In this document: piece after piece, positions 36,488 to 36,893 of the stretch
How the letters are laid out: the number at the start of each line of letters is the position of its first letter
Numbering within the stretch: position 1 is the stretch's first letter
Source of the DNA: a virus
Lineage: Duplodnaviria > Heunggongvirae > Uroviricota > Caudoviricetes
IMG/VR virus record: IMGVR_UViG_3300030294_000676
DNA: 64,000 nucleotides
Reading direction: 5' to 3' (one strand)
Notes under the pieces: generated by a model
Databases searched by the model: none
Told to the model about the DNA's origin: nothing
What the model saw: only the letters and a program-made list of their open reading frames with translations
Translations under genes and position numbers: made by a program

Positions 36488-36893
36488 TGGAGGTGGGCGG
36501 AGTCGAACCGCCGTCCAAACACGGATACGTAATAAGATTATACAGCTTAGTATTTTACAGTTACTTTTCTGGCGTTTTAATCTAAACAGCAAAACTTGGG
36601 CCTGTTTGGTTACAAACAAAGCTACACCATCTGGTGAGACCAGCATACTTAACAACCCTCAGAAAGGAGGCGATGTGTTCCAAGGCTTTTGCAACGAAGC
36701 TTAACGTCATGTTACAACTTTTCTGTTCAAAAGTAAGTTGCCAACTCGTCGCTATTAAGCAGCTGCCATAAAGGCAGTACGAGCGAAAGAAATAGTTTTA
36801 TTTCCAGTTATTGTTTGATCTCTGATTTAAGAGGGTGGTCTACCTCTGCTGTCTTATTATTTCTCTAACATGCTGTCGAAACCAAACACCCCC
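36488..36893 (-). ncRNA. ssrA: tmRNA (ssrA), phage-encoded
   Basis: 5' end GGGGGTGTTTGGTTTCGACAGCATG (compare E. coli GGGGCUGAUUCUGGAUUCGACGGG). 3' end GGACGGCGGTTCGACTCCGCCCACCTCCA (compare GGACGCGGGUUCAACUCCCGCCAGCUCCACCA). Internal tag frame ...GCT CGT ACT GCC TTT ATG GCA GCT GCT TAA gives roughly ARTAFMAAA* (stop at 36756..36758). Confidence 0.75.

Follow-up and report, generated by a model that had tools for sequence, protein, structure and literature searches.

The 64,000-nucleotide stretch of phage DNA analysed here (the window) carries at 36487..36893, on the minus strand, a genuine, full-length, one-piece tmRNA (ssrA) gene, probably of Bacteroidota ancestry, belonging to a jumbo phage and forming part of a translation-support set with 25 tRNAs and an Fmt-like enzyme. 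As judged from its sequence, the gene has the requirements for alanine charging and for directing tagging, and it is stably kept in the phage.

ARAGORN and Rfam RF00023, the two checks put forward when the tmRNA was first predicted, agree on a full-length tmRNA, and the gene is identical in six metagenome contigs. The RF00023 match (36485-36893, minus strand) scores 107.3 bits against a gathering threshold of 47, with an E value of 5.8e-41, and extends from model position 1 to 374, which is the whole model; the length to the discriminator A is 407 nt. The ends that had been quoted as tmRNA hallmarks, 5′ GGGGGUGUUUGGUUUCGACAGC and 3′ GGACGGCGGUUCGACUCCGCCCACCUCCA, proved exact. In the acceptor stem the 5′ strand GGGGGUG (36887..36893, minus strand) faces CACCUCC (36488-36494), and all seven pairs, G3:U included, are standard in the Rfam alignment and in an alifold check. 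A G3:U70 pair is an AlaRS identity element. The T-arm GGCGG-UUCGACU-CCGCC (36495..36511, minus strand) has five standard pairs out of five and is conserved with Bacteroidota tmRNAs, so that the tRNA-like domain has both a 7-bp acceptor with G3:U and a T-loop of the GUUCGAnUC type. By the Rfam alignment the long helix that closes this domain has about 25 of 30 pairs standard, and the hairpin that follows the tag has 7 of 9. The 3′ CCA is not encoded by the gene, which reads CCUCCA and then CUU, so a host CCA-adding enzyme would be needed; there was no Pfam match to such an enzyme within the window.

The pseudoknots are less regular. The first stem of pseudoknot 1 (PK1), AGAGG/CCUCU (36830..36847, minus strand), has all 5 bp standard and is conserved in Bacteroidota tmRNAs. 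Manual inspection of the tmRNA found no loop partner for a second PK1 stem, and five of the seven pairs of the PK1 stem of the RF00023 model are non-standard in the Rfam alignment. The same alignment, at low posterior probability in these parts, has 8 of 9 standard pairs for the PK3 stem and about 8 of 13 for that of PK4, with the PK2 stems mostly non-standard or deleted. When the sequence was aligned to Bacteroidota tmRNAs with MAFFT and folded by RNAalifold, only the tRNA-like domain and PK1's first stem came out reliably. Minimum-free-energy folding (z = -1.8) did not recover the tmRNA architecture and was set aside for that reason. As all copies of the tmRNA are clonal, there is no covariation evidence for the exact sequence.

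ARAGORN places the coding part at nucleotides 89-142 of the tmRNA (36752..36805 of the window, minus strand), with the resume context AUAACU just upstream. The resume codon is GGA, and the same context is present in the Bacteroidota and related phage tmRNAs that were fetched. The frame, GGA AAU AAA ACU AUU UCU UUC GCU CGU ACU GCC UUU AUG GCA GCU GCU UAA UAG, has 16 codons specifying GNKTISFARTAFMAAA and then the tandem stops UAA UAG. The original prediction had the end of the frame right, GCA GCU GCU UAA, but the tag it gave, roughly ARTAFMAAA, covers just the final 9 residues of the 16. The C-terminal FMAAA is hydrophobic, Ala-rich and degron-like by sequence. The tag as a whole is basic, is without acidic residues and ends in AAA; because of this lack of acidic residues, and of an AAA end in place of LAA, it may not be a ClpXP degron.

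A scan of a genome collection with the 5′ motif brought up Actinobacteria and Bacteroidota, and since Streptomyces dominated the matches, that motif alone is no marker of the donor lineage. The lineage is indicated by the tag start and the resume context. Bacteroidota tags begin with Gly (GNEEFALAA, GENNFALAA, GNTQYAMAA) and have the context UAACU before GGC, while the tags of actinobacterial tmRNAs with the same 5′ motif begin with Ala. The best global alignments of the phage tmRNA are to Bacteroidota tmRNAs, the closest host-type ones compared being only about 75% identical over aligned columns. On these features the phage tmRNA is of Bacteroidota type. It has in common with Bacteroidota tmRNAs of RF00023 the acceptor with G3:U, the T-arm, the closing helix, the first PK1 stem, UAACU followed by GGN, and a tag with a Gly start and an Ala-rich end. 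It differs from them in having a basic tag of 16 residues rather than 9 that ends in AAA and not in LAA or MAA, about 21 extra nt inside the tag frame, a spacing of 88 nt between 5′ end and resume codon where hosts have 93-98 nt, and no evident second stem of PK1; it is also on a phage genome, with smpB not nearby.

Nucleotide relatives of the tmRNA were absent from the GenBank phage collection, where there were short T-arm matches only, and an exact search of IMG/VR with the 5′ end gave no match; an exact search there with the 3′ end gave mostly unrelated permuted marine-phage tmRNAs with a common T-arm. The weak T-arm matches nevertheless led to annotated tmRNAs of other phages. Those of Maribacter phage Panino and of the crAss-like cr10_1 and cr7_1 are permuted and match Rfam RF04321 at 50-66 bits. 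The tag of Panino is GKVMNVSFAPTVRQFA, its resume context is AUAACU before GGU, and a 14-nt block of its tag region, UUUCGCaCcUACUG, closely matches UUUCGCuCgUACUG of the window. The complete 77-kb genome of Panino has the tmRNA, 19 tRNAs and GroES/GroEL; ClpP and SmpB were not found in it.

Scans of IMG/VR with the common 5′ motif and with a general 3′ motif brought up many viral contigs with tmRNAs, a large subset of which are permuted with tags of the form GK[TV]I.[MLI]F......AA, often with an AAA end. Tags beginning GK are present in at least 16 distinct viral-contig tmRNAs in addition to that of Panino, and the tag of the window fits the pattern apart from one additional codon after the Gly. 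Beneath the kept residues K, T, I, F and A the synonymous codons vary between contigs (ACA/ACU/ACG, AUU/AUC/AUA, UUU/UUC), which points to selection on the tag peptide, and so to the phage tags being translated. The permuted Bacteroidota-phage tmRNAs (Panino, cr10_1, cr7_1 and the IMG/VR contigs; RF04321) share the 5′ tRNA-like motif GGGGGUGNUUGGNUUNGACAGC and the resume context with the window, and their tags, such as that of Panino and GKTINLF...AA, resemble that of the window. Their genes are in two pieces and reach the resume codon only about 60 nt after the 5′ end, in contrast to the standard layout of the window gene.

From these short motifs we read the window tmRNA as belonging, with its standard layout, to a group of phage-borne tmRNAs with Bacteroidota roots. 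A bolder reading, which we consider unlikely on balance, places it in a large viral lineage that stems from Bacteroidota ssrA and in which most members are permuted. In that case two-piece tmRNA would have arisen in association with phages as well, independently of its alpha-, beta- and cyanobacterial lineages, and the tag conserved in this lineage, G-K-[TV]-I-x-[MLI]-F...A-A, would be basic and differ from the host degron. Phages would then be re-labelling rescued proteins with a signal that is possibly read by a protease or adaptor of the phage's choosing, for instance the phage ClpP system. A table in a 2025 database sorts permuted tmRNAs only into alpha, beta and cyano types, and lists 24,380 standard and 48 permuted tmRNAs for Bacteroidota genomes (PMC11915505). 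The permuted tmRNAs of Bacteroidota phages may merit a study of their own.

All genes in the window are on the minus strand, at about 30% GC; the tmRNA is too, its strand having been absent from the original prediction. Under the standard code, ORFs of at least 60 aa occupy 85% of the window and end with TAA in 84 cases, TAG in 17 and TGA in 15. Each of the three stop codons thus ends ORFs, for which reason explanations by recoding or by a suppressor tRNA were rejected; the earlier idea of stalling at leaky UGA codons has no support, there being no sign of recoding. ARAGORN identified 24 tRNAs and Rfam one more. Twenty-four of the tRNA genes form an array interspersed with same-strand ORFs (16243..28469, minus strand), and the additional single one is at 51016-51101. 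Inside the array is the gene for the Fmt-like formyltransferase (20047..20991, minus strand), recognized by Pfam, with Formyl_trans_N and Formyl_trans_C, and by PHROG. The tmRNA itself is in a neighbourhood of small ORFs, with NAD-salvage genes near.

The source is no misassembly but a real jumbo phage that is widespread. Six metagenome contigs, each assembled independently, have the tmRNA unchanged and in the same setting, and three further contigs span the ClpP region with ClpP identical, so both genes belong to the phage genome and are not assembly artefacts. The copies of the tmRNA region are clonal, 99.6-99.99% identical to the window and five of the six at least 99.98%. The same sequence turns up in over 60 blocks of the metagenome collection, on contigs of up to 140 kb and, in one of the blocks, on a contig of 0.2-1 Mb. 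Homologues of a 718-aa protein of the window occur in 539 phage records, led by one from a 462-kb uncultured huge phage, with those of Cellulophaga phages next. The host group is probably Bacteroidota. In LR756500.1, the nearest huge-phage relative, the 42 kb around the shared 718-aa protein lack tRNA and tmRNA genes, and synteny is accordingly not kept in that part; a search for syntenic relatives via the AAA ATPase found none, and one via NAMPT found a single locus at 30% identity.

Upstream of the tmRNA a hairpin, GAACAACC-GAUA-GGUUGUUC and then UUUUU (36908..36927, minus strand), can be read from the sequence. The hairpin shares sequence with the stop codon of the ORF upstream, and 14 nt lie between its end and the start of the tmRNA; it is a putative terminator, and a terminator scan did not call it. 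The next start codon is 15 nt 3′ of the tmRNA, the gene being packed tightly between ORFs, and a promoter scan had matches at chance level with no clear promoter. Given the tight packing and no better-than-chance promoter, the tmRNA would most likely be excised from a long polycistronic transcript by host tRNA-processing enzymes, like the tRNAs of the phage. A host enzyme would add the CCA, host AlaRS would charge the RNA, and host SmpB and EF-Tu would bring it to stalled ribosomes, the stalling probably arising on mRNAs broken during infection. That the complete Panino genome has a tmRNA without SmpB and without ClpP implies that host factors suffice. The tag added to rescued polypeptides would be that of the phage, of the phage-typical pattern and not of the host GNEEFALAA type, and the distinctness of this tag suggests that the fate of the tagged proteins is possibly unlike that of host-tagged ones. 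The likely benefit would be a greater capacity for ribosome rescue that, alongside the large tRNA set, keeps ribosomes on phage messages.

The window also encodes a cellular-type ClpP proteolytic subunit of 190 aa (3248..3820, minus strand), identified by Pfam, NCBIfam and alignment to PDB structures. The claim that this ORF is a ClpP is borne out: it matches Pfam CLP_protease (PF00574) over residues 18-190 at 202 bits (E 8.8e-60), and ClpPs in PDB align to it over about residues 6-190 (E 5e-47). The catalytic triad is intact, with Ser100 (CCSMG), His123 (MIHQP) and Asp172 (DRDKW) aligned to those of the solved ClpPs, and it is invariant in five sequences, that of the window and four viral-contig relatives of 57-77% identity. 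For three phage relatives whose ClpP is 77% identical, the stretches covered stop short of any tmRNA. The equivalog cutoffs of NCBIfam are missed (TIGR00493, 190.4 against 308.6; NF011091, 208.9 against 361; NF001368, 210 against 249), and by these models it is a divergent ClpP and not an equivalog. Relative to cellular ClpP (MEROPS S14, PF00574; Bacillus subtilis 3TT7/3KTI) it has the same length and the Ser-His-Asp triad, and is distinguished by a clade-specific N-terminal segment, RTIVEERPKNVAVMDVFSKL, which is invariant in the phage relatives, and by having no adjacent clpX. The closest ClpPs in GenBank phages are from gut phage contigs, huge phages and Lak megaphages. From its sequence it is apparently an active, separate, cellular-type ClpP in need of an unfoldase partner.

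The original prediction had suggested a pairing of the two genes, in which the phage may bring both a tag and the protease that degrades the tagged proteins. Their presence in one genome segment stands, each being intact, but the functional pairing is not supported, and we regard a dedicated pair as quite improbable. The Ala-Ala-Ala end of the tag does resemble ClpXP degrons, and ClpP is kept in relatives of the phage. Against this, the two genes are 33 kb apart, the tmRNA between small ORFs near the NAD-salvage genes and ClpP between the genes for RNase H and a ferritin-like protein. The ssrA tag is read by ClpX, or by ClpA, with the adaptor SspB, and not by ClpP, so the phage ClpP alone adds no tag specificity. 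Neither a ClpX/ClpA-type unfoldase nor SmpB was found in the approximately 84 kb examined (the window and 10 kb to either side), out of a genome of 200 kb or more. Among the window ORFs of 60 aa or longer, all scanned with Pfam, none matched SmpB or a Clp-type unfoldase; the only AAA+ proteins in the window, by Pfam and PHROG, are a generic AAA protein (38104-39123) and an AAA_5/MoxR-like protein (43285-44541). Precomputed Pfam labels for the 10 kb beyond each window end show replication genes and small ORFs, with no SmpB or unfoldase. A tblastn search with E. coli SmpB, for which 81 bacterial loci matched as the positive control, found nothing in the window, its flanks or Panino.

Comparison with other phages points the same way for the most part. 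Phage G does encode a tmRNA together with ClpP and ClpX (PMC12484599), but Panino has its related tmRNA without ClpP, and cellular-type ClpP is absent from the examined stretches of other tmRNA-bearing viral loci. A self-contained module of tmRNA, SmpB and ClpXP in the phage is not supported, the genes being neither co-located nor, in the related loci compared, co-occurring. The phage ClpP may work with host ClpX in degrading tagged proteins, though a dedicated link to the tmRNA is not supported; the unfoldase might come from the host, as ClpX, or be encoded in another part of the phage genome.

A quite different possible role for the ClpP homologue is that of a prohead (head-maturation) protease unrelated to protein quality control. 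PHROG shows a weak resemblance of this kind, the top match being to phrog_94 (‘head maturation protease’) with 140 bits, and homologues at 43-45% identity in several jumbo phages are annotated as head-maturation proteases. The models for cellular ClpP nevertheless score 190-210 bits, with an alignment from residue 6, as against 86.2 bits for the head-maturation model NF045542, which is under its cutoff of 120, and no scaffold domain is fused to the protein. Portal and capsid genes are not adjacent. The neighbours are genes for RNase H, a ferritin-like protein and a radical SAM enzyme, with the replication genes for a helicase, DnaB and primase just outside the window, and because of this setting the head-maturation reading is ranked the weaker and has, in our estimation, little probability.

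Returning to the tmRNA, one alternative to added rescue capacity is interference, whereby the phage tmRNA competes for SmpB or stalled ribosomes, or adds a tag that is not a degron, with host quality control being blunted or rescued products being spared or re-routed. Precedent exists in the mycobacteriophage DS6A tmRNA that consists of a tRNA-like domain only and inhibits host tmRNA (PMC4131195, PMC11915505). The unlikeness of the phage tag to the host type (16 residues and not 9, basic, no acidic residues, AAA end) and the seemingly degenerate pseudoknot 1 could be taken in the same sense. Against it speak an intact tag frame that has a conserved resume context and tandem stops, a kept Ala-rich C-terminus, and conservation of the phage tag pattern at the peptide level, which argues that the tag is translated and important; interference is accordingly given a low probability, and the reading of the gene as a full-length tmRNA of the translation-support set is preferred. 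That the gene is a non-functional passenger, recently captured from a host or left as a remnant at an integration site, is extremely improbable: phages do often integrate at ssrA and bear fragments of it, and many viral-contig matches to the 3′ motif have no ARAGORN tmRNA call or have host-like tags, probably through integration or fragment carriage, but the window tmRNA is full-length and not a 3′ fragment, a Pfam scan found no integrase near it, nothing close to it at the nucleotide level turned up among GenBank phages, IMG/VR does not contain the exact 21-mer of its 5′ end, and it is just about 75% identical to the nearest host-type tmRNAs compared while sharing features with other phage tmRNAs.

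Phage tmRNAs catalogued by 2014 included those of phage G and the Bxz1-group mycobacteriophages (PMC4131195). Huge phages are reported to carry tmRNA together with SmpB (PMC7162821), the share of phage genomes with a tmRNA is about 2.3% (PMC9004378), and the 2025 database update lists 79 unique phage sequences (PMC11915505). Phage G encodes ClpP and ClpX as well as its tmRNA (PMC12484599), and Sinorhizobium phage AP-J-162 a tmRNA and ClpX (PMC11242549). In the described cases, those of Bacillus phage G, the Bxz1 group, the huge phages of Al-Shayeb et al. 2020, Mar_Mega_1 and the two-piece forms of pelagiphages and Melnitz, the tmRNA is likewise on a large phage genome with many tRNAs (PMC4131195, PMC7162821, PMC9723777, PMC9004378, PMC12484599). 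The window tmRNA is distinguished by its Bacteroidota type, as the described cases are from Bacillus or Mycobacterium phages or are two-piece of alphaproteobacterial type (Melnitz). Phage-borne tmRNA and ClpP in big phages are already known, and the window gene is a new and divergent member of the tmRNAs among them.

With this gene the phage-encoded translation factors gain a well-supported tmRNA of Bacteroidota type. There is also a caution here, that a ‘tag plus protease’ pairing is not to be assumed from co-presence in one large genome. From a comparative perspective the lead is the shared non-host tag with its apparently conserved peptide, by which the distinction between ribosome recycling and phage-specific marking of proteins becomes testable.

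Directly downstream of the tmRNA of the window, on the minus strand, stand five tandem copies of a small paralogous ORF (34616-36471) whose products carry an N-terminal ENFKI... and a C-terminal ...DHLNDE... motif. A second family of tandem small paralogs, four copies on the same strand (23285-25153), lies within the tRNA array; its copies each have a K.GD.V.LKS..WF-like motif at the start and NYTP...F.D..NNSFTL at the end. Neither family has a match in Pfam, and one member of the first had none in PHROG. A minus-strand set of NAD-salvage genes lies downstream of the tmRNA too, a few kb away, and encodes NAMPT (31376-32806), a nucleoside 2-deoxyribosyltransferase-like protein (32807-33253) and a 299-aa Nudix-containing protein (33717-34616), with a weak match to a PnuC-like NMN-transporter within the tRNA array (27580-27795, minus strand).

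Four long tRNA-like genes follow one another in the window at 21842-22191 (minus strand). Leu(UAG) in this run is ordinary, and the variable arm of a Trp(CCA) is unusually long. The gene at 22016-22097 (minus strand) has a 6-nt anticodon loop and was labeled '???' by ARAGORN, and that at 22102-22191 (minus strand), 90 nt long, was called as 'Tyr(AUA)'; the Rfam tRNA model reports neither at its gathering score, and both may be tRNAs that are degenerate or altered in the anticodon loop. Distant from the main array is an additional 86-nt tRNA (51016-51101, minus strand; Rfam 47.5 bits) that ARAGORN missed. A match to the Pistol self-cleaving ribozyme (46083-46144, minus strand; 41.6 bits versus a gathering score of 34.5) sits between the ORF for a 717-aa product (46194-48347) and the next ORF (45701-46063).

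Circularly permuted tmRNAs occur on many viral contigs, including those of Maribacter phage Panino and crAss-like phages. The IMG/VR viral loci that have them are L150-L152, L154-L156, L158, L159, L162, L164, L188 and L203-L206, and further L224, L235, L242, L257, L258, L271, L276 and L284; all 10 put through Rfam passed the threshold of the permuted tmRNA model, RF04321. Common to them are the Bacteroidota-type resume context AUAA[AC][UC]|GGN, a resume codon only ~60 nt from the 5′ end, and a basic tag that fits GK[TV]I.[MLI]F...AA. Crass-like phage cr10_1 (L151) has two further RNAs 1-2 kb upstream of its permuted tmRNA, at 649-775 and 1628-1806: a Hatchet ribozyme (101 bits) and a RAGATH-9 RNA (97 bits).

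Three other viral loci, L153 (572-1133), L160 (6181-6742) and L161 (2015-2576), contain the tmRNA 5′ motif shared by the window and the permuted genes, and a group I intron (RF00028, 98.5 bits) comes ~330 nt after it. ARAGORN called no tmRNA at these sites; each probably holds a phage tmRNA interrupted by the intron. In L153 and L161 a tRNA array lies close by, and one of its tRNAs has the amber-reading CUA anticodon; the stretch of L160 examined has three tRNAs only.

Because a 2025 tmRNA database table sorts permuted forms only into alpha, beta and cyano types (PMC11915505), the permuted Bacteroidota-type viral tmRNAs may be an under-described phage-borne lineage.
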